Assembly (NCBI GenBank): GCA_000995415.1
Contig: LCEX01000001.1
Location: forward strand, 60 to 64,059
From: Candidatus Gottesmanbacteria bacterium GW2011_GWC1_43_10
GTDB taxonomy: Bacteria > Patescibacteriota > Microgenomatia > UBA10105
Length of the DNA stretch: 64,000 nucleotides
Reading direction: 5' to 3'
Below, in pieces: positions 21,056 through 63,698 of the stretch (position 1 is the stretch's first letter; each line of letters begins with the position of its first letter). The notes below the pieces were generated by a model, which was not told where the DNA came from, did not search any database, and saw nothing but the letters and a program-made list of their open reading frames with translations. A program made the position numbers and the translations under genes.

Positions 21056-23011
21056 GTGCATATGTGGGAATTTGTGTACTACAGCCTAATTTTCGGATTG
21101 TTTGTTTGTGGATTTTTTTTGCTTCCGGGTTTGACACTTTTAAATTGGGCGAATATAAAACAGATTGCAAACAGAACAAAAATCAGTTGCGGTTTGATCC
21201 TGGGTGTAATCGGGTTTTTGTGGCTGGTTTTAATACTAAGAAGTTTGGGTTTGTCATTTAGACTGATGTGGATTTATGCTGGCGTTGGCGTTTGGTTTAG
21301 CTGGAAGCGTTTGATTCAAAGAAAACTTCAATTGACACACTTCAAGTTAAATATTAAAAAATTTTTTTATTTGCTGGTTTTAACAACTTTAGTTTTGATC
21401 CTCTCCATTTTGCATTTGACCGGCGGAGTGGGATCAGACGGGATGCATCTGGCGGCAGCTCGGGACGGCCTTTGGCGGGTAGCTGTGGTGGGTGAATTAA
21501 TTCATCACTTTCCGCCACAAATTCCGGGTTTCCCTCCGCAACTACTCAAAAATTATCACTTCTTTTATGATTTGTTGGTGGCAAGCACACAATTTTTGAC
21601 TTCAATTCCTACTCTAACTTTATATTTTAAGCTCTTTACTGTATTCTCCGCCGCGCTGTTTGTGCTTTTGATTTATGAAATCCTAGCACTTTTCGTAAAC
21701 AAAAGCGGGTGGGTTTTATACGGTACAGTTCTGACAGTGCTTACCGGGAATTTATCTTACCTGTTACATTTTTTTTCTGCGCAATACAGCTTTCTTTATA
21801 AAGCCAATATCTTTATGTCAGATCAACCTTTTGACCAAGTACATAACCCGTTTAATCTGTTTGCTTACTCTTTGGTGTTACTTAGTATTTACTTACTTTT
21901 TGTCTGGGAAAGAAACTCTAGTCCCAAAACGTTTTTACTTCTGGCATTGGTTATTGGGTTACTTCCCGGGATCAAAATCTATGCTGGAGTATTGGTCTTG
22001 GGCGCATATATAGGTATGGTGGCTTATAAAATTTTTTGGCAAAAATACTTTCGTTTTTATTTACTACTACCCTTTATTTTTGTCTTACCAGTATTAAATA
22101 GCATTCGGGGCAGTGGGTTTTCGATTTTGGTATTTAACCCGGGTTGGTTACTAACTAAAATGATCGAAGATCGGGATCGAATTTATTGGCCCGAGATGGC
22201 ACTAAAATTGCAGTACTATACCCAAACTGGCAACATATTTCGTATATTACAGATCAGAATTACCCAATTATTAGTATATTTTTTAGGTAATTTAAACGTC
22301 CGAGTATTGGGATTGATAGTACTTTTTAGACGGGCTTGGTATAAAGACCAGACCGGAACGAAGGTATTTATTTTACTCATAGCTGTTTTTGCGTTTGGAT
22401 TGCCGCTGTTTTTTAGTCAAAATCGGGCTAGTTATGACAGTATTCAATTTACTCCATACGGTTTGCTGCTAATCAGTTTGTTGTTGGCTGTGGTTTTTAC
22501 AAGTTGGGTCTTGAGGTTAAAGCAAAATCTGCGAACTGCAGTTGGGTGGTTGGGAGGTGGGTTATTGCTAGCTTTAGCCATCCCGACAAATATTTTTGTT
22601 TTAAATCAAAATTTGTTGGCTACACATTACCAGGTAAATAAGGACGAAGTAGCTGCTTTAGCCTATCTATCAAAAAATATGCGTCCGGATGAAATAGTTT
22701 TAACAGACCTGGATCAGGATAAACAAATGTATATGTATGTCGCGGCCCTGCTTGAACGGCGGGTGTTTTTGGCCGGGATAGCATTAAACGAACAGTTGGG
22801 CATAAACTCTGACCCAAGACGCAAGGAAATAAACCAATTCTTTGCAAACCACGATGAAAACCTCGATCAGAAACGGAATTTTTTGCACAGTAATACCATT
22901 GCCTACATTTATATATCTGCCTCAGGGTTGACATATCGGGACTTACTAAATGATCTGGGGTTACAAACGGTTTACCAAAATCAGAAGGTCTATATCTATA
23001 AAGTTCCATGA
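21056..23011 (+). CDS. polytopic integral membrane protein of unknown family interrupting the paralog array
   Basis: More than 14 predicted TM segments and no DE/GYNAYS motif. Starts 2 nt after paralog 4 and overlaps paralog 5 by 4 nt, so it is co-transcribed. Confidence 0.6.
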   Translation: MHMWEFVYYSLIFGLFVCGFFLLPGLTLLNWANIKQIANRTKISCGLILGVIGFLWLVLILRSLGLSFRLMWIYAGVGVWFSWKRLIQRKLQLTHFKLNIKKFFYLLVLTTLVLILSILHLTGGVGSDGMHLAAARDGLWRVAVVGELIHHFPPQIPGFPPQLLKNYHFFYDLLVASTQFLTSIPTLTLYFKLFTVFSAALFVLLIYEILALFVNKSGWVLYGTVLTVLTGNLSYLLHFFSAQYSFLYKANIFMSDQPFDQVHNPFNLFAYSLVLLSIYLLFVWERNSSPKTFLLLALVIGLLPGIKIYAGVLVLGAYIGMVAYKIFWQKYFRFYLLLPFIFVLPVLNSIRGSGFSILVFNPGWLLTKMIEDRDRIYWPEMALKLQYYTQTGNIFRILQIRITQLLVYFLGNLNVRVLGLIVLFRRAWYKDQTGTKVFILLIAVFAFGLPLFFSQNRASYDSIQFTPYGLLLISLLLAVVFTSWVLRLKQNLRTAVGWLGGGLLLALAIPTNIFVLNQNLLATHYQVNKDEVAALAYLSKNMRPDEIVLTDLDQDKQMYMYVAALLERRVFLAGIALNEQLGINSDPRRKEINQFFANHDENLDQKRNFLHSNTIAYIYISASGLTYRDLLNDLGLQTVYQNQKVYIYKVP

Positions 23012-50386: not shown

Positions 50387-51487
50387 TTACCCGTGGAGCT
50401 CCATTTTTATCTGATCAAAAACTGCTCGCAGCTTCTGGCCATACTTCTCTATCGAATAAGATTCGACAATAATCCGCCGGGCGTTTCTTTCGATTTTACT
50501 ACGTTTGGCCTGATATGTATTCAAAAAATGAATTGCCTTATATACTGCGTATTCATCACTTACAGGGACTTTTAGGCAATGAACTAAGTTTTGGAATTGA
50601 TATTCTTCAACCCCTGGGCTCTCGGTAAAAATGACGGCCTTACCGCAACTCATGGCGCGCATCGCCGTGCTTTGGCCGGCAAAGTGATAGTTAAATTTAG
50701 AAAGAATCAGTAAGTATTTTGCTTCCCAGATGCGTTGTCTTAAGTCTAAATAAGACAGATTATATTCAAAAACGACATTTTTAGGCATGTCATGTTTTAC
50801 GATATAAGGGTAAGTGACGACCCGAAATGTCTCTTGCGGAAAGTTGCGGGCAATCTTGGCGTAGAGTTGCCAGTCCCGTGAGGGGTCAGCCCCAATAATC
50901 AAAATTTCATTATTAGATAGAATCTTTTTCGGAGTAAAGAAGTCCGTGTCAATTCCAAACGGAATAAAAGAAAATTTTGAGAGCGGAAATTTGAGCATCT
51001 TAGCCAGTTTTTTACATTCTTGAAAACTTCCTCCTGCCACAAAATGATCAACAGCGCGCAAAATTTGTTGATAGAAATACAAAATTAACGGATTCTTCAT
51101 TGTTAACAGACCATCATACAGTCCTATTGTATTGAAGACCAAAGGTTTACGAACAAGTTTTAAAAACTTAAGTAAAGCAATTGGTAACCCGTAAGTATCA
51201 ACCGTGGCAAAAATTATATCTGACCGATTTAGGTCTTTTAACAAATAAATTGCTGGAAAAAGTGAAAAGCCAAGAGTTATGAATTTAGTAACAAAGATAT
51301 TTAACAAATGTTGACTGAACAATAAAGTTCTTGATTTAAACACTTTGTCACTAACTTTAACTGCACAATATTTATTTATTTCTGTTAAACCGTAAAAGAT
51401 ATCGCGCGGTGAGTCGTGTTGATAAGCGTTTTCGATTTCTTTTGTAACCGGTCTTCTAAAAACATACAAAATGGAGCGTTTTGACAT
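50387..51487 (-). CDS. putative GT-B-fold glycosyltransferase (divergent GT4-like)
   Basis: The C-terminal region FAGQSTAMRAMSCGKAVIFTESPGVEEY resembles the GT-B nucleotide-sugar binding helix. Otherwise no strong motif. Confidence 0.45.
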   Translation of the reverse strand: MSKRSILYVFRRPVTKEIENAYQHDSPRDIFYGLTEINKYCAVKVSDKVFKSRTLLFSQHLLNIFVTKFITLGFSLFPAIYLLKDLNRSDIIFATVDTYGLPIALLKFLKLVRKPLVFNTIGLYDGLLTMKNPLILYFYQQILRAVDHFVAGGSFQECKKLAKMLKFPLSKFSFIPFGIDTDFFTPKKILSNNEILIIGADPSRDWQLYAKIARNFPQETFRVVTYPYIVKHDMPKNVVFEYNLSYLDLRQRIWEAKYLLILSKFNYHFAGQSTAMRAMSCGKAVIFTESPGVEEYQFQNLVHCLKVPVSDEYAVYKAIHFLNTYQAKRSKIERNARRIIVESYSIEKYGQKLRAVFDQIKMELHG

Positions 51488-51610: not shown

Positions 51611-52780
51611 ATGAAAAAGCTCATTCCTTATGCTCGGCAGCAGATTGACGAAACTGATATACAGGCAGTAGTAAGGGTACTAAGATCGGATTTTCTTACC
51701 CAAGGAACTGCTGTTCCCCGCTTCGAAGATGCGGTCAGTCGGTACTGCGGAGTCAAGTACGCAGTGGCATACTCTTCAGGGACAGCTGCCCTTCACGGAG
51801 CTTGTTTTGCTGCCGGGATCAATAAAGACGATGAAGTGATCACGTCTCCTTTGACTTTTGCCGCATCGGCTAATTGTGTTTTATATTGCGGTGGGAAACC
51901 CATACTTGCTGATATTCGCTCTGATTTACCCTTGATTGATGTATCGCAAATTGCCAAAAAAATTACTAAAAAGACCAAAGCTATTATTCCCGTTGATTTT
52001 TCAGGGATTCCGGCTGACTATGACGACATAAATCAATTAGCTAGGAAGCATGGACTGATAGTCATTGCCGACAGTGCTCATTCACTAGGAGCTACCTACA
52101 AAGGAAAAAAAGTCGGAACACTGGCTGATATGACAGTATTTTCATTTCATCCGGTTAAACTTATTACGACAGGCGAAGGGGGGATGGTAGTCACGAACGA
52201 TAGAGATTTTTATGAAAAACTGCTACTTTTCAGGACGCATGGGATCACTAAAGATCCGCAAAAATTATTAAATAAAAATGTTGGACCATGGTATTATGAA
52301 ATGCAGGAGTTGGGTTTTAATTACAGATTGACAGATATTCAGGCAGCATTAGGTATTTCCCAGATGGAGAAAATAGAAATATTTATAGAGCGGCGGACAG
52401 AAATAGCCAGAAAATATATCGCGGCTTTCAAAAACGAAAAACACTTCAAAACTCTTAAATTTCTCAAAGACCGGACTTCAGCTTGGCATTTGTTTCCAGT
52501 CCTTTTAACTCCTCGGTTAGTTGATTACAAAAGGCAAATAGTAGAGGATTTACACAAACGAGGTATATTGGTCCAGATCCACTATATTCCTGTTCATTTA
52601 CATCCGTACTACAGAAACACATTTGGATATACAAATAGAAACTACCCGAAAGCGGAAATGTGGTACCACAGTGAGATATCGTTGCCGCTCTTCCCAGCAC
52701 TTACAAAAGAAGAGATAAAATATATTGTGACCACGGTTCTTGAAGAGATGCAAAAATACACTGTAAAATTACAGACTTAA
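51611..52780 (+). CDS. DegT/DnrJ/EryC1/StrS-family PLP-dependent sugar aminotransferase (PseC/ArnB-like)
   Basis: Conserved over the full length of the family. FSFHPVKLITTGEGGMVVTND carries the catalytic Lys region. N-terminal domain DFLTQGTAVPRFEDAVSRYCGVKYAVAYSSGTAAL. Confidence 0.9.
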   Translation: MKKLIPYARQQIDETDIQAVVRVLRSDFLTQGTAVPRFEDAVSRYCGVKYAVAYSSGTAALHGACFAAGINKDDEVITSPLTFAASANCVLYCGGKPILADIRSDLPLIDVSQIAKKITKKTKAIIPVDFSGIPADYDDINQLARKHGLIVIADSAHSLGATYKGKKVGTLADMTVFSFHPVKLITTGEGGMVVTNDRDFYEKLLLFRTHGITKDPQKLLNKNVGPWYYEMQELGFNYRLTDIQAALGISQMEKIEIFIERRTEIARKYIAAFKNEKHFKTLKFLKDRTSAWHLFPVLLTPRLVDYKRQIVEDLHKRGILVQIHYIPVHLHPYYRNTFGYTNRNYPKAEMWYHSEISLPLFPALTKEEIKYIVTTVLEEMQKYTVKLQT

Positions 52781-53821
52781 CAGAAATTTTCGAAACTCCG
52801 CATTAGCTTGAGAATCAGACATTTGTTTGGGAGGAGCTTTCATCAAAAATGAACAAACTTTCCAGGTGTCTTTTTGTTTTCCACGATTAACCAGCAATTT
52901 GGCTATGCGTATCGCATCCACCACAACTCCGGCACCATTGATGCTGATTTCATCTTCAATAACAGAGATAATAGATATAGGAACCCGTCCGAATATTTCC
53001 CCTTCTATTTTGATGTTGACCAACTTGTGCCCGGAAGGTTTACCGGTATAGAAAAATTTTACTGACGGCTCCGCATCTCCTTTTTCCAAAAAGTGTGTTA
53101 ATGCTTCACGTTTTGATTTTTCTTTTGATTTGGCTCGATACAATAAATTGAAGTGATCGGCATTTCCACCACGATTTTCCTGTTCAGATTTTGACACATT
53201 AATCCCGCGCATTTTCAGCAACTCTAATAAAAAACGATTAAGCATAGTTGCACCCAACTGACTTTTGATATCATCCCCTAATAGGACTAGCCCGTTATTT
53301 GTAAACTTCTTTCTCCATTCGGGTATGGTTGCTAGCGGGGTGGGGATACAGTTAATAAAACTGCAGTGTGCTTCAAGCGCCGCTTCTGCATATACATATG
53401 TTGCTTGTTCACCGCCAGATGGGACAAAGTTTACGACAATATCTGCCTTAGATTTTTTGAGAATATTTACAATATCGACCACTGGCGCATTACTTTCATG
53501 TACAAATGATTTTCTCATTTGATCTATGATGCCATCCAGAGTCGGGCCCCGGTGTACTACAGCATCATATTTGAGGGGATCGCATATTTTTAAAGTAACA
53601 TTCGGTTTTGCAGAAATTGCTTCATGAAGTTTTTTATTGACTTTTCGTTCATCCACATCAAAGGCGGCGACGAAGTTGATATCTTGTATCCGGTAGTTTC
53701 CGATTTTAGGATTTATCAGACCTCTGTTCTCTTTTGGATGTTTTGTATAGAATGCAACTCCCTCTACAAGTGCTTTGGTAAAGCTGCCAACACCAATAAT
53801 TGCGACATTGATCTTATTCAC
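52769..53821 (-). CDS. myo-inositol-1-phosphate synthase family (Ino1-like, NAD-dependent) enzyme
   Basis: [22 protein letters not shown] matches [34 protein letters not shown] matches [19 protein letters not shown], and [28 protein letters not shown] matches [28 protein letters not shown], all in the same order as in mycobacterial/archaeal-type MIPS. Confidence 0.75.
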   Translation of the reverse strand: [350 protein letters not shown]

Positions 53822-53879
53822 TAAGTTAAGTTAATCGTTTGATTACACAGGCACCATGTATTCTTGAGTCAATGCGATT

Positions 53880-53888
53880 TGATATAAT
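53880..53888 (+). promoter_or_regulatory. extended -10 promoter element TGATATAAT upstream of the PEP-utilizing gene (with AGGGA RBS at about 53907)
   Basis: TGaTATAAT at 53880-53888, 27 nt upstream of ATG 53916. AAGGGA 5-10 nt upstream of the start. An identical TGATATAAT occurs upstream of 60773. Confidence 0.4.
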
Positions 53889-53915
53889 TGTAGCACAATT
53901 TTGAAAGGGAAATAA

Positions 53916-55220
53916 ATGCACTTAATTAATTATGGTTGCCGGGAGGATGTAGCCGGAAAATTAAGAACAATCAAGTTACTAAAACAAATAAATCAAATCT
54001 TGCCTGGTGAAATCATAGTTCTTAAATTGTCCGGGGATTTATTGATCCCAGTTTTGCAAGCAATTGATAGGGGAGCAGTTGCCTTTATTGCAGATTGCGG
54101 AAAAACAAATCACGGAGTGATCGCTGCCAAAGAACTAGGCTTGCCTTTCTATATCGGTAACCAAAATGATTTGAGAAATGGCTATTATTACTCACTGTTA
54201 GAAAATCAAATTCATCCGGGTAAAATGCCCATAAAAACAAGTAAAAACGCAAACAGAAGATTAGCACCTGCTACTAATAAGAATTTATTTATTAATCTGG
54301 GTTTTCCTAAGCGGGTTTTAAAACACAACCCTCAACTATTTTCTGCAGTTGATGGAGTGGGGTTTGCACGTCTCGAATTTTGCATCGCAGAAATCATCGG
54401 TCGATTGCATCCGGTAGAATACCTGCGACGTTTTGGCGAAGAAAAATTGCTGATAGAAATATACAAAGAGTTTGCAAAGGTGGCTGATAAATTTAGCGGC
54501 AAACGCTTTTGGATCAGAACTGACGATTTCTCCCCTGCACAACTAGTCCAACTTGAAGCCGGAAAAAAATATGAGTCACACATAGGTAATGAACTGGTTA
54601 GTTTTAGAGGCATAAGTCGATCGATACATCCCGACTGGCAAAACTTGGGCAATCTGGAAAAGAAGTTAACCGGAGTAAGCTGGATAGGCATTCAATTTAA
54701 AGCTTTGAACATATTAGCCAGAGATTTTCCCAAAGTAAAATTTGGAGTGTTTGCTCCGATGGTACATGATGTTTCTGAATATAAAGTTTGGCGGAAGATA
54801 GCGGATAAATTTATTAAGCAGCCGATTGATTATGGAGTAATGGTGGAAGTTCCAGCATTGACAGGAAAAGGAATTACGCCGTTTATTAAAAGTAAACTTA
54901 TTGATTTCATGATTTTTGGGACAAACGACTTAACGGCGTTGACTTTGGGTATAGATAGATCTGACAACCGATTAGCATACTTATTTAACGAAGAAAATCC
55001 GGTAGTTCTAAATTCCCTTTATGAAACCATCGCTATTTGTAAAAAGGCAAAAGTACTTACTGCAATTGGTGGAGCAGCAGCTTCAAGGCCAAGTCTGATA
55101 AAAAAATTATTCACAGCCGGGATAGATATTTTTTCGGTGAATCCAGATCGGGAAACTATTAACCAAACTCGGCAATTTATTTATAAATTAGAACGAGGTA
55201 AAAAAAATGCAAAAAATTAA
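53916..55220 (+). CDS. PEP-utilizing enzyme: phosphohistidine mobile domain plus PEP/pyruvate-binding TIM barrel (PEP synthase/PPDK C-terminal half), lacking ATP-grasp domain
   Basis: N-terminal swivel domain ...[31 protein letters not shown], and [21 protein letters not shown] matching the PPDK/PEPS signature [29 protein letters not shown] corresponds to the GLCRTEHMF region. Confidence 0.7.
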   Translation: [434 protein letters not shown]

Positions 55221-56226
55221 AATATTAATTACCGGAGCCAGTGGTGACTTGGGAAGGGTGATGGTTCTATACTTATCCACGTTTAAGAAGTTTGAAATAT
55301 ATGCGGCAGATAGTCAGATTGACTTATTGGCTGCAGCCCCATCTAGTAAAAGATATCTTTTGCCCAAAGCAGATACTCTGGAATATATACAGGAATTGAA
55401 CCAACTCCTAGAGAAAAATCATATAGACATATTATGGTTGGGATCTGACTTGGAAATTAGACGTGTGACACAGGACAAAGATAACATCTCCGCTAAATTT
55501 TGGTACCCACCTCATAAAGCGATTGTTACAATGCAAAATAAATTTTTATGTAATCAGCTTTGGCAAAGTAAAAATGTGGCGGTTCCTAATTCGATTGTTA
55601 TAAAGGAACCGTCCCAGCTTAAGCCAGATGTTTGGTTAAGACCTGTGGATCATATCGGTGGCGGAGGTAAGCTGGCTGTGCACGCTGTCACAAAAATTCA
55701 AGCCAAACAGTGGTTAGATCAACACCATGGATGGGGAAAATTCACCATGAGTGAATTTTTGCCTGGTGTCATGTTTGGTTTTGATTCTCTATGGAAAAAC
55801 GGAAAATTGTTAAGTTTTTCTATCAAAGAAAGAGTGCGTTATTCCAGAGACTCCTCAATCAGTTTTACAACGAGTGTGGTAAAAACCTCAAGCAATCAAC
55901 AGGCGATAAAGATGGCAATTAAAGCAATTAAAACTATCCTACCCCACCCAGATGGCGTTTTTTCTGTGGATTTACGTGAAAACAGTCAGGGGATTCCTTG
56001 CGTAACCGAAATCAATCCAGGCAGGTTTCTTACCACCTCTATTCTGTTATTTAAAGAACTAAGTTATGATCTGCCATTAGATTATCTCAATTTGATTTTA
56101 GGGAAAAAGATACCAGTAAGAAAACAAATAAGAGAAAATCAGTACCTATTCTTTGTTAAAGGCTTAATTAGAGTAGTTGATGAAAAAGATATGTTGGTAG
56201 AGAATGCCCGGAGATACTGGAAATAA
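55207..56226 (+). CDS. ATP-grasp domain protein (pre-ATP-grasp Rossmann-like N-terminus plus ATP-grasp core)
   Basis: WLRPVDHIGGGGKLAV (Gly-rich loop). SEFLPGVMFGFDSLWKNGKLL, and GVFSVDLRENSQGIPCVTEINPGR (E-x-N metal-binding end). 14-nt overlap with the PEP-utilizing gene. Confidence 0.65.
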   Translation: MQKIKILITGASGDLGRVMVLYLSTFKKFEIYAADSQIDLLAAAPSSKRYLLPKADTLEYIQELNQLLEKNHIDILWLGSDLEIRRVTQDKDNISAKFWYPPHKAIVTMQNKFLCNQLWQSKNVAVPNSIVIKEPSQLKPDVWLRPVDHIGGGGKLAVHAVTKIQAKQWLDQHHGWGKFTMSEFLPGVMFGFDSLWKNGKLLSFSIKERVRYSRDSSISFTTSVVKTSSNQQAIKMAIKAIKTILPHPDGVFSVDLRENSQGIPCVTEINPGRFLTTSILLFKELSYDLPLDYLNLILGKKIPVRKQIRENQYLFFVKGLIRVVDEKDMLVENARRYWK

Positions 56227-56227
56227 C

Positions 56228-56935
56228 ATGAAATATGCGTTAATTAGTGATATTCATGCTAATCCCCTAGCCTTAGAGTTAGTGCTTCGAGATATTACTC
56301 TGCATGATATAGACAAGTTACTCATCGCCGGAGATTTCGTGGGTTATTATTATCGCCCTGATGTTTGTTTCGAACTACTTGAGGAATGGAACTGGATAGG
56401 CGTACAGGGCAATCACGACCAAACATTACAAGATTTTGTGAGCGGCAATTCAGTTATGATGCAAATTTACCGTGAGGAATATGGAAGTGGTTTAGATGAG
56501 GCGGTAAAAAGACTTACCTTAAATCAAAGAAAGTTGCTTTCGTCACTTCCGGAAAAGAGGGAACTGTTGATTGATGAGCAAAAAGTTTTGTTGTGTCATG
56601 GTTCACCCTGGTCGATCAATGAACGCATCTATCCTGATGCCAAACTAGAAGTATTTACGCGCATATCCAGTTTAGAGTATGACTGGGTTATTTTGGGACA
56701 TACACATTATCCGTTGGTTCAAGAAACAAATCAAACGTTGATTGTCAATCCTGGATCTGTCGGACAACCGCGCGATATTGGAGGTCTGGCGAGTTGGATG
56801 GTGGTTGATTTTGGTAAGCGTACCTGCCAGTTAAAACGAGTTAAATTTCCTACCCAAAAACTGATTCGGGAAACAAAACTCTTGGATCCAAAAGTCCCAT
56901 ATTTAGCTGAGGTTTTGATGCGTAAACCAAGATAA
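56228..56935 (+). CDS. calcineurin-like metallophosphoesterase (YfcE/MJ0936-like)
   Basis: MKYALISDIHAN, LLIAGDFVGY, GNHD, CHGSP, ILGHTH form the classic metallophosphoesterase motif series D-x-H ... GD ... GNH[DE] ... H ... GH-x-H. Confidence 0.8.
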   Translation: MKYALISDIHANPLALELVLRDITLHDIDKLLIAGDFVGYYYRPDVCFELLEEWNWIGVQGNHDQTLQDFVSGNSVMMQIYREEYGSGLDEAVKRLTLNQRKLLSSLPEKRELLIDEQKVLLCHGSPWSINERIYPDAKLEVFTRISSLEYDWVILGHTHYPLVQETNQTLIVNPGSVGQPRDIGGLASWMVVDFGKRTCQLKRVKFPTQKLIRETKLLDPKVPYLAEVLMRKPR

Positions 56936-56936
56936 G

Positions 56937-58004
56937 TTATTTTTTGGCTATGAATTTCCAAGATAGTGGCGTGCCGGAGGCTATATTTTGAGTTGCCGTG
57001 GCTCCGATAATCTTCTGATAGAACCTTGGGGGTAAACCGTTTGCAGGTCTGATAGAGCGTACATTATCCCATGTAAATTTTTCGCCAACCTTAACAGGCC
57101 GGATGACGAACAGCGATCTTCGCCATCCATATTCGCGCATTTGCGCCTCTCCTTTTTTAACGCCATATTTTACTTTTCCCATGGCCTGTTCGGTGATTCG
57201 GATCGACTTGACCATTTGAGCAAATTCACTTGGTACTAATGAAAAACCTGCATCGACCGCCCCTTTTTTTCTTGAAAGAGTCAGATGTTTTTCGATGATT
57301 GACGCTCCCAATGCGACCCCTGCCACCGGTATTTCCCATCCCAGAGTATGATCTGAGATCCCCACAGGAACACCAAATGTTTGGAGCAAATGAGGGACGG
57401 TTTTTAGATGCATCTCTTCAGGCGGAGCCGGATATGCACTGGTGCATTTAAGCAAAGCTATTTCGCGCGCGCCGGATTTGCGAGCCGCATTCACTGCTTC
57501 CCTGATTTCGGAGAGAGTAGCCATCCCAGTTGAAATAATTAGCGGTTTGCCGGTATGGGCCATTTTTTGGATCAAAGGTATATCCACCAATTCAAATGAA
57601 GCTATCTTGTGTACAGGTGGATTAACCTCTTTTTCTAAGTAGTCGACTGCAGTTTGATCAAAAGCAGTCGAAAAAAAATCCAGGCCCAACTTAGTAGCTA
57701 ATTTTTTGAGTTTGAGGGCCCAATCCCATGGAGTATAAGCTTTTTGGTAGAGGGAGTATAGGTAATTCCCTGACCATAGGGATCCGGGGTCGGAGATTTT
57801 AAACAGCGGACTTCTGACATTAAGAGTCATCGTATCGGCGGTATAAGTTTGGAGTTTGACTGCATCAGCGCCGGCAGTTTTAGCTGCTCTGACAATTTCT
57901 TCTGCCTCTGAATAGTCCTGTTTATGATTACCGGACATTTCGGCAATGATATAAGTAGGATGATCCCGGCCTATCTTTTTACCGCCAATTGCAAAACTTT
58001 TCAT
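56937..58004 (-). CDS. N-acylneuraminate/pseudaminate/legionaminate synthase family (NeuB/PseI/LegI-like), PEP-dependent, with C-terminal SAF domain
   Basis: FAIGGKKIGRDHPTYIIAEMSGNHKQDYSEAEEIVRAAKTAGADAVKLQTY matches the NeuB N-terminal signature. C-terminal RSLFVIRPVKVGEKFTWDNVRSIRPANG is the SAF/antifreeze-like domain. Confidence 0.9.
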   Translation of the reverse strand: MKSFAIGGKKIGRDHPTYIIAEMSGNHKQDYSEAEEIVRAAKTAGADAVKLQTYTADTMTLNVRSPLFKISDPGSLWSGNYLYSLYQKAYTPWDWALKLKKLATKLGLDFFSTAFDQTAVDYLEKEVNPPVHKIASFELVDIPLIQKMAHTGKPLIISTGMATLSEIREAVNAARKSGAREIALLKCTSAYPAPPEEMHLKTVPHLLQTFGVPVGISDHTLGWEIPVAGVALGASIIEKHLTLSRKKGAVDAGFSLVPSEFAQMVKSIRITEQAMGKVKYGVKKGEAQMREYGWRRSLFVIRPVKVGEKFTWDNVRSIRPANGLPPRFYQKIIGATATQNIASGTPLSWKFIAKK

Positions 58005-58038
58005 AGTGACGAGAGGAGTATTGTAAAGAGAAATTATA

Positions 58039-58710
58039 TCAATCTTTGATATTTCTCACAACTTGAAACGCTTCTGCATTTTGAAATCCCACCTCCATAC
58101 CTCTATAGTGAGCGAGCGTTTTGATGCCTTCAGCAGATCGGGGATGGGGAAAAGAGCGAAGTTCATCTTTATAAATTTTCATTAACTTTACTTTTTTTTC
58201 TATATATTGAGAGATATTTATGTATTCTGTTGGAGAAAACATAGTTTGGGGTGATTTGTGTTGCCATTCAGTTGAAGATAGGACTTCAAAAGAAACAATT
58301 TTTTTTACAAAAAATCCAGGTTGGGGTCGGCAGGCAGTCAGTACTGCCTGAAAAGTGAGACGATGATCAATATTTAAATCAGAGGCAAAATGTGTATAAA
58401 CGAGATTGGGTTTGATTTTAAAAATAGTGCGTTCGACAACTTTAGTAATCGTAAGTAATGGCAGTGAATCAAATTTGTTATCGGGAAGTTTTTCAAGAAT
58501 AAGTTCCTTGGCGCCTATTTTTTTTGCCACCTGTTGAGCTTGTTTGGCACGTTTTTGAATACTACCTTGATCATCTCTGGCTGATTCGCCATCTCCTAAA
58601 ATCAGGATGTATAAGAAATCTCTGTCAGCCACATGTTTGAGCATTATTCCCCCGGCGCCTAGAACCTCATCGTCTGGGTGAGCCGCAACAACCATGACTT
58701 TATTTTTCAT
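58039..58710 (-). CDS. PIG-L/LmbE-family N-deacetylase (start at MKNKVMVVAAHPDDE, ATG 58710; ORF opens at 58815)
   Basis: VMVVAAHPDDEVLGAGG is the LmbE/PIG-L zinc-binding signature. ILILGDGES follows. Confidence 0.8.
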   Translation of the reverse strand: MKNKVMVVAAHPDDEVLGAGGIMLKHVADRDFLYILILGDGESARDDQGSIQKRAKQAQQVAKKIGAKELILEKLPDNKFDSLPLLTITKVVERTIFKIKPNLVYTHFASDLNIDHRLTFQAVLTACRPQPGFFVKKIVSFEVLSSTEWQHKSPQTMFSPTEYINISQYIEKKVKLMKIYKDELRSFPHPRSAEGIKTLAHYRGMEVGFQNAEAFQVVRNIKD

Positions 58711-59392
58711 AAACTTCCACTTGGGCGGCCAGCTTATTTTTTCGCAAACGCGCTTTGGAAAATTCGAACCGTAATCCTTTGGTCTGCAAAAAAGCTTTTG
58801 GATATTCAGGCGCATCTAGCATGCGGATAAAATCATAAGCATCAGAAATTGTTTTAACCGGTTCGAGATTACTTTCTTCTGGTAGCCGTCTCTTAAAAAG
58901 AGTAATTTTTCCTGTTTGTGGAGTAGGAGTTGGTTCATTTTTTATAATGTGCGGGATCATGTCTGAAAAAACAATTTGTGAAAGTCGGGCGTAGATTTGT
59001 TCGGCACTACCTTTGAGTGATACTGGTCGTTTAAGATAAATATTTCCTGTGTCCATGCCGTCGCTAACTCGTATTGCCGAAATTTTGGTATTCTTAAAAC
59101 CCCGAATAATTAAATTTTGGAGCGGACTCCCACCTCGGCCAAACGGCAAGTCCGTCATATGAAAAACCACACATTCAAAATTGCGCCAAATCTCTTCCGA
59201 AATGATCCAAGACCAATGAGGGAAAAAAATGTAACGGGGGTGGAGCCGTCTGAGGTGTTCCACCGTCATTTCAGATTTATTTTGAATGAGATGATAGTTC
59301 TTTTTGGCACTAAAATATTTATGGAAGTTAGCAATATTCCAAGGCCTGATAGTAGCGATGATATATGTTTTAGACACCATAGTTTTTCCCAA
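58700..59392 (-). CDS. formyltransferase-domain protein (sugar N-formyltransferase, Fmt/ArnA-N-like)
   Basis: FFPHWSWIIS...FHMTDLPFGRGGSPL matches the formyl_trans_N H-x-S-x-LP-x-x-RG-x-x-P motif. 230 aa with no C-terminal Met-tRNA binding domain. Confidence 0.65.
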   Translation of the reverse strand: MGKTMVSKTYIIATIRPWNIANFHKYFSAKKNYHLIQNKSEMTVEHLRRLHPRYIFFPHWSWIISEEIWRNFECVVFHMTDLPFGRGGSPLQNLIIRGFKNTKISAIRVSDGMDTGNIYLKRPVSLKGSAEQIYARLSQIVFSDMIPHIIKNEPTPTPQTGKITLFKRRLPEESNLEPVKTISDAYDFIRMLDAPEYPKAFLQTKGLRFEFSKARLRKNKLAAQVEVYEK

Positions 59393-59396
59393 ATTG

Positions 59397-60029
59397 TTAT
59401 TTTTTTAATAACCACCAATGGCAGTCATCGAATCCGGCAGAGGCATCCAAAAAACCATGTTTAAGAAGGGTAAGACGGGGATATAACGCCAACCATTCTT
59501 TATCAAACGGACGTTTAAATAAGGCGTCAGTCAATCCGCGGTAGGGGATAACCGTTTTTTCCTGAGCGAAGTATTCGATAGTAAGAATGTACTTTCGGGA
59601 AGCAGTATGGATACGGCGTAGCGCTTGAGCCAAATTGGCGTCTCCGATATGGATGAGTACGCCGATAGTAAATACTAGATCAAAGGCGTTTTTCCACGTA
59701 CTATCAAAAATACTTTTTTCAAAAATACGGGCGCTGGGGACCAGTTTTCGAGCAGTGGCAACAGCTATTTTGTTAGGTTCTAGACCCATGAGTTTGAAAT
59801 CAGGATTAATTTTGTGTAATACATCGAGGTTCCCGCCAATATTACAACCCACCTCCAGAATAGACTTAATATCGGGAAAATCGCGAAATACAGATTTAAA
59901 AAAAGCAGCTCTTTTCCTAAAACGTGAAAGGTCAGAGTTACGTTTAATGTATTCGTTACCAAACGTTCCTTGCCAGTAAGCAAGTTGTTTTGTTTTATTG
60001 ACCATAGTGCTTTTGCTGAACATCAGCAT
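59397..60029 (-). CDS. class I SAM methyltransferase resembling the pseudaminic-acid-biosynthesis-associated methylase family (TIGR03587-like)
   Basis: QLAYWQGTFGNEYIKRN is the N-terminal hallmark of that family as I recall it. ILEVGCNIGGNL is SAM motif I. About 200 aa. Confidence 0.6.
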   Translation of the reverse strand: MLMFSKSTMVNKTKQLAYWQGTFGNEYIKRNSDLSRFRKRAAFFKSVFRDFPDIKSILEVGCNIGGNLDVLHKINPDFKLMGLEPNKIAVATARKLVPSARIFEKSIFDSTWKNAFDLVFTIGVLIHIGDANLAQALRRIHTASRKYILTIEYFAQEKTVIPYRGLTDALFKRPFDKEWLALYPRLTLLKHGFLDASAGFDDCHWWLLKK

Positions 60030-60717
60030 TAAGTTTTGCTATTTTAGGGTGTTTTTCCAACAGCTCAATAATCTCCAAACTGTTTTTTTTATGAGCCTGG
60101 TATTTCTGGATAAGTGTTTTGACTGCCAAAAAATCTTCTTGAGTATCTACTGTAATTCTATATGCAGATTCGTCTTTTGGTTGTGTCAGTTGTTTGATTA
60201 TAAATCGATCGGGATGGTTTCGCCAAATGTAGGGTGTGACATGTTCGCGTTCTAGTAGTTCTGTAGCTTTTTGAAAAGCCTCGGTCAGAGCCGCAAAGGT
60301 AAAGATTTCAAAATCGAACCCCCGGGGATAAGTGCGTTTGACCGTATTGGAAAGATAATCGCAACCAGATTTTTGAAACATCCTCAAACCTTTTGCGATC
60401 AAATCCCCGTCTATCAGAGGGCAGTCGGACGTGATCCTAATTATCGTTGTTAAGTCAAAGGCCTGTGCGCAGTAATAGAACCTGGCCAAAACGTCGTTTA
60501 AATCTCCCCTGAAAACTGGCACTGAAATGGTTTGACAAAGTTGAACGATCGCATCATCTTTACGATCAATGGAGGTGGCTACGATTATAGGTATTTTTGA
60601 CTCTTGGGCTCTTTTTAAATGATATTCCAGAAGGGTTTGATTATTAATTTTGGCTAACACTTTACCGGGTAAACGGATAGAGGACATCCGAGCTTGGGTA
60701 ATAATAGCTGTTTTCAT
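59995..60717 (-). CDS. acylneuraminate cytidylyltransferase family (CMP-nonulosonic acid synthetase; PseF/SpsF/NeuA-like)
   Basis: AIITQARMSSIRLPGKVL matches the SpsF/PseF A-I-I-Q-A-R-M-G-S-T-R-L-P-G-K motif. About 240 aa. Confidence 0.8.
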   Translation of the reverse strand: MKTAIITQARMSSIRLPGKVLAKINNQTLLEYHLKRAQESKIPIIVATSIDRKDDAIVQLCQTISVPVFRGDLNDVLARFYYCAQAFDLTTIIRITSDCPLIDGDLIAKGLRMFQKSGCDYLSNTVKRTYPRGFDFEIFTFAALTEAFQKATELLEREHVTPYIWRNHPDRFIIKQLTQPKDESAYRITVDTQEDFLAVKTLIQKYQAHKKNSLEIIELLEKHPKIAKLNADVQQKHYGQ

Positions 60718-60749
60718 GTCTTGATCTGCCTTATTCTAACATATTGAGG

Positions 60750-60758
60750 TGATATAAT
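60750..60758 (+). promoter_or_regulatory. extended -10 promoter element TGATATAAT upstream of 60773
   Basis: TGaTATAAT at 60750-60758, 15 nt upstream of the ATG, giving a short or absent leader. Same nonamer as at 53880. Confidence 0.4.
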
Positions 60759-60772
60759 GAGAATCTTGAGAT

Positions 60773-62680
60773 ATGGGTAAGAAAAATCGTACAATAATCA
60801 TCTTCGCGTTTACGCAAAAACAGGCAGAATGGGGAGTTGATTACCGCCAAAAACATACTAGTGACCAAACTATCATTTTAGCTCCGACGATTGAGGCTAC
60901 TCTCACGCTCCAAAAATACCAGCAGCAGGCATTTGAGTATTTTAATTTATTGTCACAAAATAGTCCGTTACATTACCCGCAAGTTCTCTTGCCTTATTCC
61001 GAGAAAAGCCAGGAATTAGTGAAGTATTTTAACAAACACGTGGAACAGATCGAGGTGTGCGGTATCAATTTCATCGAGATTTTTGACTATTTACTCTGGG
61101 GAGAGTTTTTAGATGTTTTTTTGGCATATGCGCTCTTCAATGAAATTGAAAAGAAGTGGCACCCGGATGCATTTATCGGATTTAAAGACGCGGCTGATGT
61201 TTCGCTAGCCAGTTGGTCGCCTCGACAATTTTCTTACGCCGCTCTGATTTGTGCTTTTTTTGCCCCACCCGAAAAGGTAAAATGGCAGGAAATTTTAGAT
61301 CCCTCCCACCAATCGAGGATTTTTGATTACACGTTTTATCTACCAACGTTGTTTCGGACAGTTTTAGAAATGGGTGGCGGATGGATTCTAAAAAAATATT
61401 CAAATTTGAAAAATCGCTTATTCAAAATAAAACCACACGAAGTTGACTTTCTCTTGTTCTCCGGCGGATTTAACTTGTATTATAACAAGTCGTTGTTTGA
61501 GCACCTTTTATCAAACCGTAAGTATCTTGTAACTACCGGGGATCATCTTTTGGAACACGAATGGTTACTTAAAACTCAAAGTTTTCACTACACTCCACTA
61601 GCACATTTCTTGACAAGGCAATTATCTGACCAAGTCGATAAAACGCACCAGCAAATTTCCAAAAAAATCGATTCAATTCTCACCCAAACAGAAGTCACCC
61701 AATTACTTTTTCCCAGCTCGCTTCCCGAGGTCTGCAAGCAAGCGTGTTTGGCAAAGTTACGGTTGGTGTTTCGCCAATACACGCTAAAATTTGTCCGCCA
61801 AACTATATTAGCCCAAGAAGTCATCCGCAGCTCTCGACCCAAACTGGTAATTACCACACACGATCCAGGACCCTCTGCATTGCCGTTTGTGTTTTTGGCC
61901 AAGCGCAAACACATACCCACGTTAGTCTTATTACATGGATTTCACGACGTGCATTTTGGAGCCGATCACAAGAGTGACTACATGGCTTTGTGGGGGAAAT
62001 TAGTCCAAAATAGATTTGAAAAAATACTTCATAAACCCCGTAAGACTCTTTTTACTGTGGGTTTTCCCCATTTGGATGAGATTTTTCAAAAAAAGCAGGC
62101 TTTTTGGCAACGAAATCTTGGGCAATTTAAACCACGAAACCCAGTCAAAATAGGATTTCTGTGCACATTATATCCGCCCAATACTTTTATTCTGACAAAA
62201 TACTTTCATGAGGTGATGGAAAAGTTTAAGCAGTTACCATTTCCCATAGAAGTATGGATTCGAACTCATTCCGGGCAAATTGTGCATGAGCTTAGGAGTT
62301 TGGGAGATCATTACGGGGTGAAAACGATGATAAATCCAAAGACGACTTTAAACGAATTCTTGGAATCAACAGATGTGATTGTGTCTTGGGATACGACAGC
62401 CATTTTGTGGCCAATGCTATTTGGCAAACCTTTGTTTTACATGAGTCCTTGGTGGGCGGAAGCCAATATCCCAGCAAACAAATATCAGGCGGCATGGACA
62501 GTAAAAAACGCTGCAGAGTTGGTAAAAGGACTTGATTATTTGGTACATCATCCAGAAGCTGTAACCAAACTTCATCCAGGTCAACGCCAATTTTTAAACG
62601 ACGCATTGGGAGTGATTGATGGAACTTCTGGAGAAAAACTAGCAAATCTGATTGAGCATTTACTGACGAGTTCTGCTTGA
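60773..62680 (+). CDS. large soluble protein of unknown family; candidate GT-B-like nonulosonate transferase or PseG-type hydrolase fusion
   Basis: 635 aa, no TM helices. C-terminal VIVSWDTTAILWPMLFGKPLFYMSP resembles a GT-B C-terminal donor-binding segment. It sits between the CMP-sugar synthetase and PseB genes. Confidence 0.4.
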   Translation: MGKKNRTIIIFAFTQKQAEWGVDYRQKHTSDQTIILAPTIEATLTLQKYQQQAFEYFNLLSQNSPLHYPQVLLPYSEKSQELVKYFNKHVEQIEVCGINFIEIFDYLLWGEFLDVFLAYALFNEIEKKWHPDAFIGFKDAADVSLASWSPRQFSYAALICAFFAPPEKVKWQEILDPSHQSRIFDYTFYLPTLFRTVLEMGGGWILKKYSNLKNRLFKIKPHEVDFLLFSGGFNLYYNKSLFEHLLSNRKYLVTTGDHLLEHEWLLKTQSFHYTPLAHFLTRQLSDQVDKTHQQISKKIDSILTQTEVTQLLFPSSLPEVCKQACLAKLRLVFRQYTLKFVRQTILAQEVIRSSRPKLVITTHDPGPSALPFVFLAKRKHIPTLVLLHGFHDVHFGADHKSDYMALWGKLVQNRFEKILHKPRKTLFTVGFPHLDEIFQKKQAFWQRNLGQFKPRNPVKIGFLCTLYPPNTFILTKYFHEVMEKFKQLPFPIEVWIRTHSGQIVHELRSLGDHYGVKTMINPKTTLNEFLESTDVIVSWDTTAILWPMLFGKPLFYMSPWWAEANIPANKYQAAWTVKNAAELVKGLDYLVHHPEAVTKLHPGQRQFLNDALGVIDGTSGEKLANLIEHLLTSSA

Positions 62681-62711
62681 AGAATTGGATTTTCTATGGT
62701 AGAGTGACGAC

Positions 62712-63698
62712 ATGTTTGATTGGAGTAAACAAGTGATACTTTTGACCGGTGGTACCGGTTCTTTTGGTCAGGCTTTCACTCAATACCTTCTGAAATATCA
62801 TTCTCCCACAGCCCTTAGAATATTTAGCCGAGACGAATTTAAACAGTACGAGATGCAACAGAGATTTCAGCATCCATGTTTACGTTTTTTCATTGGTGAT
62901 GTGCGTGACCCAGAACGGCTAGCTCGAGCTATGGATGGCGTGACGTTGGTGGTTCATGCGGCTGCACTCAAGCAAATTGTCGCTTGCGAATACAACCCAA
63001 ATGAAGCAATCAAAACAAACATCATTGGGACGATGAACGTTTTGAATGCGGCGCTGGATGCTCAAGTTGAACGGGTGTTGGGATTGATCACCGACAAAGC
63101 AGTCAGCCCAATCAATTTATATGGAGCCACAAAGCTATGTATGGAAAAATTGCTGATCCAGGGAAATTCGTATCATGGAAAACACCGAACAGCGATCAGT
63201 TGTGTCAGATACGGAAATGTGGCTAATAGCCGTGGAAGTGTAGTGCCGCTTTTTAGGAAACAGAAAGAAACTGGGACATTGACAATTACTCACAAAGACA
63301 TGACACGTTTTTGGATCACTCTTGAAGAAGGGGTCAAATTCGTGGTTCGGACCATCGAAACCATGCAAGGGGGAGAAGTATTTGTACCCAAAATGTCTAG
63401 TTTCAAAATCATGGATCTAGCTCGGGCAATTGCCCCAGAAGCCAAACACAGATTTGTGGGTATACGTCCTGGAGAAAAACTGCATGAAGATTTGATTAAC
63501 CATCACGAAGCCATAAACGTGGTTGAGTTGGCCGACCATTTTATCATCAAGCCCGGAAACGTTTTTTGGACAAAAGATAAAAGACTAACAGCTTTTGACG
63601 GAAAAACAGTAGTTGCCGATTTCTCATACAATAGTAAAACTAACCCTCATTATTTATCAATACTGGACTTACAAAAAAGTTTAGAGAAACTCTTTTAA
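62712..63698 (+). CDS. pseB: UDP-GlcNAc 4,6-dehydratase, inverting (PseB/FlaA1/CapD-like); first enzyme of pseudaminic/legionaminic-type pathways
   Basis: VILLTGGTGSFGQAF...RIFSRDEFKQYEMQ...FFIGDVRD...HAAALKQIVACEYNPNEAIKTNIIGTMNVLNAA...TDKAVSPINLYGATK...YGNVANSRGSVVPLF...MTRFWITLEE aligns block by block with H. pylori/C. jejuni PseB. Confidence 0.9.
   Translation: MFDWSKQVILLTGGTGSFGQAFTQYLLKYHSPTALRIFSRDEFKQYEMQQRFQHPCLRFFIGDVRDPERLARAMDGVTLVVHAAALKQIVACEYNPNEAIKTNIIGTMNVLNAALDAQVERVLGLITDKAVSPINLYGATKLCMEKLLIQGNSYHGKHRTAISCVRYGNVANSRGSVVPLFRKQKETGTLTITHKDMTRFWITLEEGVKFVVRTIETMQGGEVFVPKMSSFKIMDLARAIAPEAKHRFVGIRPGEKLHEDLINHHEAINVVELADHFIIKPGNVFWTKDKRLTAFDGKTVVADFSYNSKTNPHYLSILDLQKSLEKLF

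Follow-up and report, generated by a model that had tools for sequence, protein, structure and literature searches.

Introduction

The canonical pathway to the activated nonulosonate CMP-Pse5Ac7Ac (Pse, pseudaminic acid) runs through PseB, PseC, PseH, PseG, PseI and PseF in Campylobacter jejuni and Helicobacter pylori. Here we analyze a 64 kb stretch of contig LCEX01000001.1 (positions 60 to 64,059, forward strand) from Candidatus Gottesmanbacteria bacterium GW2011_GWC1_43_10, hereafter the window, which carries equivalogs of PseB, PseC and PseI together with a TIGR03587 methylase, but has no PseH or PseG equivalog and encodes a cytidylyltransferase of the SpsF rather than the PseF type. Compared with the canonical pathway, the window adds a pair of genes for a PIG-L/LmbE-family de-N-acetylase and a formyltransferase-fold protein of the 1ZGH type (here called type A), a block encoding a phosphoenolpyruvate (PEP)-utilizing-enzyme homologue, an ATP-grasp enzyme, a phosphoesterase and a myo-inositol-1-phosphate synthase (MIPS)-like protein, and a probable GT-B transferase. 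We consider it probable, if some way from assured, that these genes, part of a very large surface-glycan island, direct the synthesis of a tailored CMP-pseudaminic acid by a variant pathway. The type of pathway and the general idea of tailoring by a deacetylase and a formyltransferase are already known; what is new is the composition of the module, together with the finding that no gene in the cluster can be assigned to the PseG and PseH steps.

The known Pse formyltransferase is PseJ of Anoxybacillus kamchatkensis, which leads to CMP-Pse5Ac7Fo and is represented in the Protein Data Bank (PDB) by entry 6CI2 (cited in PMC11040635). Its pathway resembles the one described here in placing a formyltransferase-fold enzyme within a Pse cluster and in having an N-formylated Pse as its product, which in the window is a proposed one. 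The type-A protein differs from PseJ in showing no match to it at E ≤ 1, in lacking the Asn of the catalytic triad, in carrying a PF21553 C-terminal domain and in always being paired with a deacetylase. Moreover, type-A genes co-occur with PseJ-like genes in six of the 80 loci that we compared, and are therefore not their equivalent.

Three further systems bear comparison. An annotated plasmid of Synechococcus sp. NIES-970 (AP017960.1) encodes PseB, PseC, a cytidylyltransferase, a GT28 protein (PseG), a GNAT, a formyltransferase-like protein, LmbE and PseI. It shares with the window the order formyltransferase-like, LmbE, PseI, as well as the SpsF-type cytidylyltransferase, PseB and PseC, but retains the GT28 PseG and the small GNAT and has neither the PEP-utilizer block nor the 635-amino-acid (aa) GT-B protein of the window. 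The cluster of Candidatus Kuenenia stuttgartiensis can be likened to ours by its description: the early and late nonulosonate genes flank those for a deacetylase and a formyltransferase, formyl and methyl groups as well as a free amine are found on the CMP-sugars, and for the CMP-nonulosonates with a free amine and a formyl group, action of the deacetylase and formyltransferase at the nucleotide-sugar level has been proposed (bioRxiv 10.64898/2026.04.20.719630). Unlike ours, that cluster is of the legionaminic (Leg) type and has a NeuC/LegG-type nucleotidase. Finally, the Pse/Leg transferases Tanf_01245, TFUB4_00887 and BFO_1060 of Tannerella forsythia (PMC5420450) are, like the 635-aa protein, GT-B/TagB-like and encoded beside nonulosonate genes, although the 635-aa protein is almost twice as long and scores 34.5 bits against a family cut-off of 200.

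Materials and methods

The window was extended beyond its right-hand end by 8.7 kb using JGI contig Ga0209211_10000237, which is identical to it from position 61139 on, bringing the sequence inspected to about 73 kb in total. This contig is labeled L007; L-numbers denote the fetched comparison loci. Equivalog calls were made by scoring NCBIfam models against their curated cut-offs, and 40 window open reading frames (ORFs) were scanned in this way. A genome scan with the formyltransferase-like protein as query, taking one genome per species, gave matches in 427 species genomes spanning the Candidate Phyla Radiation (CPR), Clostridia, Campylobacterota, Alteromonadaceae, Planctomycetota and archaea, from which 80 loci were fetched. 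Co-occurrence was counted in the 44 of these whose context extended 7 kb or more to either side, using our own ORF calling and Louvain clustering of the locus ORFs. The profile for PseG was built from 48 homologues, one representative of which scored 220.7 bits on TIGR03590.

Results

The biosynthetic core consists of the following genes.

62712..63698, plus strand: PseB, inverting UDP-GlcNAc 4,6-dehydratase (TIGR03589, 466.8 bits against a cut-off of 407.75; Pfam Polysacc_synt_2)
51611..52780, plus strand: PseC aminotransferase (TIGR03588, 502.1 bits against a cut-off of 423.5; LegC next at 251)
56937..58004, minus strand: PseI, pseudaminic acid synthase (TIGR03586, 448.7 bits against a cut-off of 340.25; Pfam NeuB and SAF domains)
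59397..60029, minus strand: Pse biosynthesis-associated S-adenosylmethionine methyltransferase (TIGR03587, 187.7 bits against a cut-off of 112.05)
59995..60717, minus strand: SpsF-type cytidylyltransferase, probable CMP-Pse synthetase (Pfam CTP_transf_3; best solved relative PDB 6oew, E = 3e-42)

A first-pass annotation of this DNA had named twelve ORFs, all of which are present where it placed them, and its calls of PseB-like, PseC-like and NeuB/PseI-like enzymes and of a Pse-associated methylase hold at equivalog level. Because PseB, PseC, PseI and the methylase all score above their curated cut-offs, while the LegC, LegB and FnlA models score far lower, we assign the cluster by family membership to a real Pse-type pathway, neither legionaminic nor of the 3-deoxy-D-manno-octulosonate (Kdo) type, but a non-standard one. 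The match of the synthase to PseI exceeds those to NeuB (286.5 bits, under its cut-off of 399.65) and to 3-deoxy-D-arabino-heptulosonate 7-phosphate (DAHP) synthase (E = 2.8e-4), and it thus groups with PseI and not with the Kdo8P/DAHP synthases. The genes for the cytidylyltransferase, methylase, formyltransferase-like protein, PIG-L and PseI form a tightly packed minus-strand run with overlaps or gaps of no more than 34 nt. The closest relative of PseB (65% identity) comes from a Patescibacteria metagenome-assembled genome (MAG).

Of the supposed PseF-like CMP-synthetase, the cytidylyltransferase part stands and the equivalence to PseF does not: the protein has no match to PseF (TIGR03584) at E ≤ 1e-3, and it fits a profile of SpsF-type enzymes (E = 1.8e-87) far better than one of true PseF homologues (E = 7.7e-10). 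A true PseF from the comparison loci, by contrast, scores 339.9 bits on TIGR03584. The SpsF type is present in 27 of the 44 loci and true PseF in 14, with both in one locus and neither in four. This alternation, together with a 2026 survey of Clostridium that also identified "PseF" through homology to the Bacillus subtilis sps genes (PMC13317340), leads us to assign the SpsF-type enzyme as the probable CMP-Pse synthetase, doing the job of PseF.

Within the minus-strand run lie the two genes that set this cluster apart.

58039..58710, minus strand: PIG-L/LmbE-family de-N-acetylase (Pfam PF02585, 79.7 bits against a cut-off of 28.2; ORF extending to 58815)
58700..59380, minus strand: formyltransferase-fold protein of the 1ZGH family, type A (PDB 1zgh, E = 1.2e-76; Pfam PF21553 and a weak PF00551)

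The most likely start of PIG-L is Met36 at 58710, giving a protein of 223 aa, compared with a family median of about 227. From this start, PIG-L shares 11 nt with the 3' end of the formyltransferase-like gene; the two genes are therefore coupled, bearing out the translational coupling claimed for them at first pass. The metal-site motifs of PIG-L, AHPDD and NIDH (xDH), are present, and they are kept in all 76 homologues. With gene context alone as a guide, PIG-L would most likely de-N-acetylate a 2-acetamido sugar. Enzymes of the LmbE family (MshB, BshB, PIG-L) act on 2-acetamido sugars; therefore, the freed amine would be the GlcNAc-derived one, N5 of Pse.

The formyltransferase-like ORF extends to 59392 and its probable start is the ATG at 59380, for a product of 230 aa. 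Its identity to PDB 1ZGH, a structural-genomics entry named "Met-tRNA formyltransferase" from Clostridium thermocellum, is about 60%, and its best relative (59% identity) again stems from a Patescibacteria MAG. The motif FHMTDLP[FY]GRGGSPLQNLI, with the His and Asp kept, is common to all 79 type-A members. The version in the window, FHMTDLPFGRGGSPLQNLI, likewise retains His and Asp and has Val where the catalytic Asn is expected. PseJ is not among the 31 PDB sequences that the type-A protein matches at E ≤ 1. The idea that the type-A protein is itself a PseJ was therefore rejected on the lack of a sequence match, the missing Asn and the existence of separate PseJ-like neighbors that match 6ci2 at E = 7e-43. 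NCBIfam holds no curated family for the type-A protein or for its PIG-L partner, and literature searches for LmbE in Pse clusters and for Pse in Patescibacteria returned nothing relevant.

PIG-L is present in all 44 of the full-context loci and lies directly downstream of the type-A gene in 38, and the other companions are PseI (41 loci), PseB (37), PseC (35), PseG (28), a GNAT (25), a type-B formyltransferase (7) and a PseJ-like protein (3). One locus found by protein search, L088, has a PIG-L 58% identical to that of the window, set within a PEP-utilizer/ATP-grasp/Metallophos/MIPS-like block, and no type-A gene, which argues that PIG-L is the amine-freeing step and the type-A protein one of its clients. 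On the simplest reading, PIG-L would free an amine and the type-A protein would re-acylate it, probably exchanging N-acetyl for N-formyl. The coupling of the genes and the constancy of their pairing support as plausible the earlier suggestion of deacetylation followed by formylation at one amine.

The scan of window ORFs confirmed that canonical PseH and PseG are missing, with no match to TIGR03585 (PseH) or TIGR03590 (PseG) among them. In the comparison loci, GNATs with weak similarity to PseH, PseJ-like proteins and type-B formyltransferases are nearly mutually exclusive, only two of the 44 containing more than one of the three, and they therefore look like alternatives for a single step, that of PseH. 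In 33 of the 44 loci one or other of them accompanies the type-A gene, which makes the type-A protein an unlikely substitute for PseH. The sole relative of PseH is a 223-aa GNAT about 9 kb downstream (L007:9130-9801), which reaches 31.7 bits against the PseH cut-off of 93.1 and matches a profile of the cluster-associated GNATs at E = 2.5e-14; we regard it as a candidate for acylation of the 4-amino group.

Run against six-frame segments of the window and of the 8.7 kb that follow, the PseG profile gave a lowest E-value of 0.26, and no pseG/pseH pair lies in those 8.7 kb past the right end. When the GT-B proteins in and near the window were compared with the PseG profile by hhalign, the probability reached at most 37%, and that for an ordinary GT4. 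Other GT-B proteins considered as a divergent PseG (that at 50387-51487, a 329-aa gene leaving the window end and several GT4 genes) did not rise above generic GT4 and were set aside.

All ten CPR loci with the type-A/PIG-L pair and usable context are without PseG within 10 kb, and seven of them encode a DUF218 protein, whereas most non-CPR loci with the pair have PseG inside the cluster. An AP_endonuc_2 TIM-barrel protein occurs in five of the 44 loci, never together with PseG; neither this protein nor PseG is present in 11, eight of which are CPR. A profile of the AP_endonuc_2 protein detects 11 loci in all, including L001:5438-7348, where the domain is fused to NeuB. Neither DUF218 nor the AP_endonuc_2 TIM barrel was found in the window by profile search.

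Two recurrent associations were seen in passing. The AP_endonuc_2 (xylose-isomerase-like) protein, of 259 aa, is found in ten Pse clusters (L024, L025, L053, L055, L057, L064, L075, L082, L086 and L087) and never beside PseG. Pse clusters without PseG (L008, L011, L012, L013, L015, L028, L045, L062 and L088) repeatedly encode a DUF218 protein, either on its own or fused to a formyltransferase domain, and seven of these DUF218-bearing loci are CPR; DUF218 is a candidate for a non-orthologous replacement of PseG.

Two products of the window had been put forward at first pass as removing the nucleotide, the metallophosphoesterase and a large protein of uncharacterized type. The gene for the metallophosphoesterase is one of a block of four that separates pseC from pseI.

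52769..53821, minus strand: MIPS family homologue (TIGR03450, 273 bits, below the cut-off of 638, with full-length alignment; Pfam Inos-1-P_synth)
53916..55220, plus strand: PEP-utilizing-enzyme homologue (Pfam PF02896; phosphohistidine and PEP-binding domains, no nucleotide-binding domain)
55207..56226, plus strand: ATP-grasp enzyme (Pfam ATP-grasp_3 and ATP-grasp_4; 14-nt overlap with the PEP-utilizer gene)
56204..56935, plus strand: YfcE-type metallophosphoesterase (TIGR00040, 66.9 bits against a cut-off of 56.25; 23-nt overlap with the ATP-grasp gene)

The PEP-utilizer homologue aligns to residues 368-791 of PEP synthase. The block has no counterpart in the 80 loci, save in L025 and L082, where a phosphoesterase homologue adjoins an ATP-grasp gene. 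Protein searches found it in two others. L088 encodes DUF218, the PEP-utilizer (50% identity), ATP-grasp, Metallophos, PIG-L and, beside PIG-L, the MIPS-like protein (72%), along with PseB, PseC, PseI, a GNAT and PseF. In L089 the PEP-utilizer (51%) is followed by the ATP-grasp gene (48%) and then, in the position of the phosphoesterase, by a HAD phosphatase. Since a HAD phosphatase can take its place in this conserved block, the phosphoesterase appears to be a side-branch phosphatase and not the UDP-releasing enzyme, and we rejected it as a UDP-sugar hydrolase. The block is best read as a separate, conserved tailoring module with the phosphoesterase as its phosphatase. Its make-up recalls the logic of mycothiol and bacillithiol synthesis (inositol-phosphate synthase, phosphatase, LmbE deacetylase, ATP-dependent ligase), and also the Campylobacter phosphoramidate pathway. 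As a separate observation, in the nonulosonate clusters of L090 and L095 distant PEP-utilizer homologues have nucleotidyltransferase, Asn-synthase-like, APS-kinase-like and B12-radical-SAM genes as fusion partners or neighbors, contexts that recall the O-methyl-phosphoramidate pathway of Campylobacter.

The large protein and a neighboring glycosyltransferase are encoded as follows.

60773..62680, plus strand: 635-aa GT-B fold protein, probable CMP-Pse glycosyltransferase (AlphaFold model, Foldseek, C-terminal match to NF046086)
50387..51487, minus strand: GT4-like glycosyltransferase (weak GT4 matches; clusters with genes beside homologues of the 635-aa protein in L002 and L004)

The 635-aa protein has no Pfam match and no PDB relative by sequence or profile search. 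With only 20 homologues among 5.8 billion clustered proteins, relatives in Patescibacteria MAGs included, it forms a rare family of its own. Its AlphaFold model (pLDDT 86.9, pTM 0.86) has a GT-B fold, for which Foldseek returned UDP-GlcNAc 2-epimerases as the best matches, alongside WecB, TagF, MurG, MshA and WaaA, with E-values down to 2e-10. The C-terminal 115 residues resemble NF046086, the BFO_1060 glycosyltransferase family (E = 1.2e-8), with a score far under the cut-off. BFO_1060 is the orthologue of Tanf_01245, deletion of which strips terminal Pse or Leg from Tannerella O-glycans (PMC5420450). Every examined context of a homologue of the 635-aa protein is a nonulosonate or 6-deoxy-amino-sugar island, in which the homologue is often in translational coupling with a PseB-like dehydratase; L002 among these has NeuC, and L001 has the fusion of NeuB with the AP_endonuc_2 TIM barrel. 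The modeled fold and these contexts suggest that the 635-aa protein is most likely a Pse transferase, a role that fits all contexts where that of a hydrolase does not. As a hidden PseG it was discarded on an hhalign probability of 0.5% against PseG, the lack of a PDB profile match and the coexistence of a homologue with NeuC.

The contig that extends the window departs from it within the 635-aa gene. Its first 194 nt (L007:1-194, opposite window positions 60945-61139) are unrelated, so that the breakpoint yields a 521-aa product with a different N-terminus; the difference reflects either strain variation or a chimeric end of the contig. Beyond the window, L007:5261-9801 (about 66200-70750 in window coordinates) holds a second amino-sugar sub-cluster with an ArnC/PgfS-like GT2, a LegC-like aminotransferase, a split transketolase and the GNAT described above. 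A second Polysacc_synt_2 dehydratase (L007:11617) lies past it, and the extension also carries further glycosyltransferases and methyltransferases. A transketolase pair similar to that of L007 stands beside a homologue of the 635-aa protein in L092.

The window consists almost entirely of glycosylation genes, including DUF6798/PMT_2 proteins, and resembles the CPR loci L004 and L091-L093, in keeping with a likely origin in an ultra-small groundwater bacterium of the CPR. Between 14173 and 26259 are six tandem PMT_2/ArnT-like GT-C membrane glycosyltransferase paralogues (27-37% identical, 534-602 aa, 5-8 predicted transmembrane segments), an array broken at 21056-23011 by a 651-aa protein with 12 transmembrane segments and no Pfam match. 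A 525-aa protein with FecR and NAGPA "phosphodiester glycosidase" domains (10650-12227, minus strand) adjoins a beta-propeller protein at 8657-10660; cleavage of a sugar-1-phosphodiester is formally PseG-like, but the protein is apparently extracytoplasmic and 40 kb from the Pse genes. Isolated amid the glycosylation genes, a 275-aa ORF (5653-6480, plus strand) has a weak Cas4-like nuclease match (32.5 bits against a cut-off of 65).

Discussion

The comparison of this locus with its relatives enabled us to propose a model for the synthesis of a tailored CMP-pseudaminic acid. By family assignment, PseB and PseC convert UDP-GlcNAc to UDP-4-amino-4,6-dideoxy-L-AltNAc, and PseI condenses the released hexose with PEP. 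The remaining steps are suggested by comparative genomics. PIG-L would remove an N-acetyl group, most likely the one inherited from GlcNAc, on the nitrogen that ends up as N5 of Pse, and the type-A protein would re-acylate the freed amine, most likely with formyl, while the TIGR03587 methylase would add a methyl group. Since a formyl and a methyl group together match acetyl in elemental composition, a Pse that is both formylated and methylated would be isobaric with Pse5Ac7Ac (residue 316 Da) and could not be told from it by mass alone, contrary to what the first-pass annotation had suggested. The PEP-utilizer/ATP-grasp/phosphoesterase/MIPS-like block may represent a second, separable tailoring module that also uses the product of PIG-L. 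The SpsF-type cytidylyltransferase would act in the role of PseF, and the 635-aa GT-B protein would move the finished sugar from CMP to its acceptor.

Several points weigh against this model. Two residues before the His, where the Asn-His-Asp triad calls for Asn, the 79 type-A members all have V, C, I, A, G, T or L, and without the Asn formyl transfer by the type-A protein is not assured. We found no functional or biochemical literature on the 1ZGH family, and N5-formyl Pse is absent from the searchable literature, N7-formyl Pse being the only known form. The 80 loci were chosen through the formyltransferase-like protein, so that our co-occurrence figures are conditional on it. Furthermore, the genes present in cis do not suffice for a working pathway unless an enzyme that releases UDP is supplied. 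Finally, GNAT, PseJ and type-B formyltransferase are all missing from the window cluster, as is also the case in 11 of the 44 related loci, and the type-A protein could act on the 4-amino group instead.

It is this last arrangement that the first-pass annotation envisaged in having the type-A protein replace PseH. Worked out in full, it would give a 7-N-formyl group, with PIG-L freeing N5 for some other acyl group, added for example by the ATP-grasp enzyme, and a product close to Pse5(acyl)7Fo. Such a sugar has precedent in Pse7Fo5(3RHb), a known natural product with 7-N-formyl and a non-acetyl N5 (PMC11040635), and in the Kuenenia nonulosonates, too, a single formyl group accompanies a single free amine (bioRxiv 10.64898/2026.04.20.719630); moreover, L088 shows that PIG-L can work with the ATP-grasp block where there is no type-A protein. 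We nevertheless judge this arrangement unlikely, and the replacement of PseH is a part of the first-pass annotation that we do not find supported. In the six loci shared with PseJ-like genes, a proven 7-N-formyltransferase family, and in the GNAT-bearing loci, which are the majority, the type-A protein would be redundant at N7, it is never found without PIG-L, and it has neither a sequence match to PseJ nor the catalytic Asn. Re-acylation of the amine freed by PIG-L remains our preferred role for it.

A different set of explanations concerns the steps that the cluster lacks. No window gene has real support as the UDP-releasing enzyme, which leaves either a gene elsewhere in the genome or an unrecognized enzyme. 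The pathway may be functionally complete without being so in cis, with PseG and a PseH-type acetyltransferase encoded elsewhere, or with the downstream GNAT performing the PseH step. The match of that GNAT to the cluster-associated profile and, weakly, to PseH is consistent with this, as is the fact that the inspected sequence is only about 73 kb of the genome. We rate this as possible with the chances against it, given that the contrast between the PseG-less CPR loci and most non-CPR loci points to a lineage-wide substitution, and that the GNAT sits in a different sub-cluster with the LegC-like aminotransferase, the split transketolase and the ArnC/PgfS-like GT2. Release of UDP by a non-homologous enzyme of the window, whether the 635-aa protein acting as a hydrolase in the manner of PseG and NeuC/LegG or the metallophosphoesterase acting as a UDP-sugar pyrophosphatase in the manner of UshA and LpxH, seems to us decidedly unlikely. 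PseG and NeuC are both of GT-B type and UDP-GlcNAc 2-epimerases head the structural matches of the 635-aa model; its homologues are coupled to a PseB-like dehydratase in four loci, none of which shows PseG or NeuC, and homologues of the metallophosphoesterase are confined to PseG-less loci. Conversely, homologues of the 635-aa protein stand beside NeuC and the NeuB-AP_endonuc_2 fusion, its hhalign probability against PseG is only 0.5%, and every such cluster needs a nonulosonate transferase, for which it is the sole candidate here. The metallophosphoesterase, for its part, can be replaced by a HAD phosphatase and coexists with DUF218 or TIM-barrel candidates in L088, L025 and L082. Neither of the two first-pass proposals for nucleotide removal is supported by the comparison.

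A broader reading joins both halves of the problem: CPR bacteria would make Pse without a PseG homologue, using unrelated enzymes (DUF218 or AP_endonuc_2 proteins being the candidates in relatives, and a third, unrecognized solution being needed here), and the PIG-L/type-A pair would give an N5-formyl or otherwise non-acetyl Pse, a sugar that has not been described. We advance this reading tentatively and think it more apt to fail than to hold as a whole.

Pseudaminic acid is found on flagella, pili, capsules and S-layers, and its pathway is a target for drugs and vaccines. PseG is systematically absent from the CPR clusters, for which recurrent replacement candidates exist, and the SpsF-type cytidylyltransferase is apparently the commoner alternative to PseF in these clusters. 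Hundreds of species have the two-gene module of PIG-L and the 1ZGH-type protein in their Pse clusters. Several of them, Clostridia and marine Gammaproteobacteria, can be cultured; carriers amenable to culture include Clostridium sporogenes, Clostridium drakei, Halanaerobium kushneri, Pseudoalteromonas lipolytica and Desulfosporosinus lacus. Enzymes that add non-acetyl N-substituents are in demand for chemoenzymatic synthesis. For the CPR bacteria themselves, the locus indicates a large genomic island devoted to surface glycans with sialic-acid-like sugar tips.

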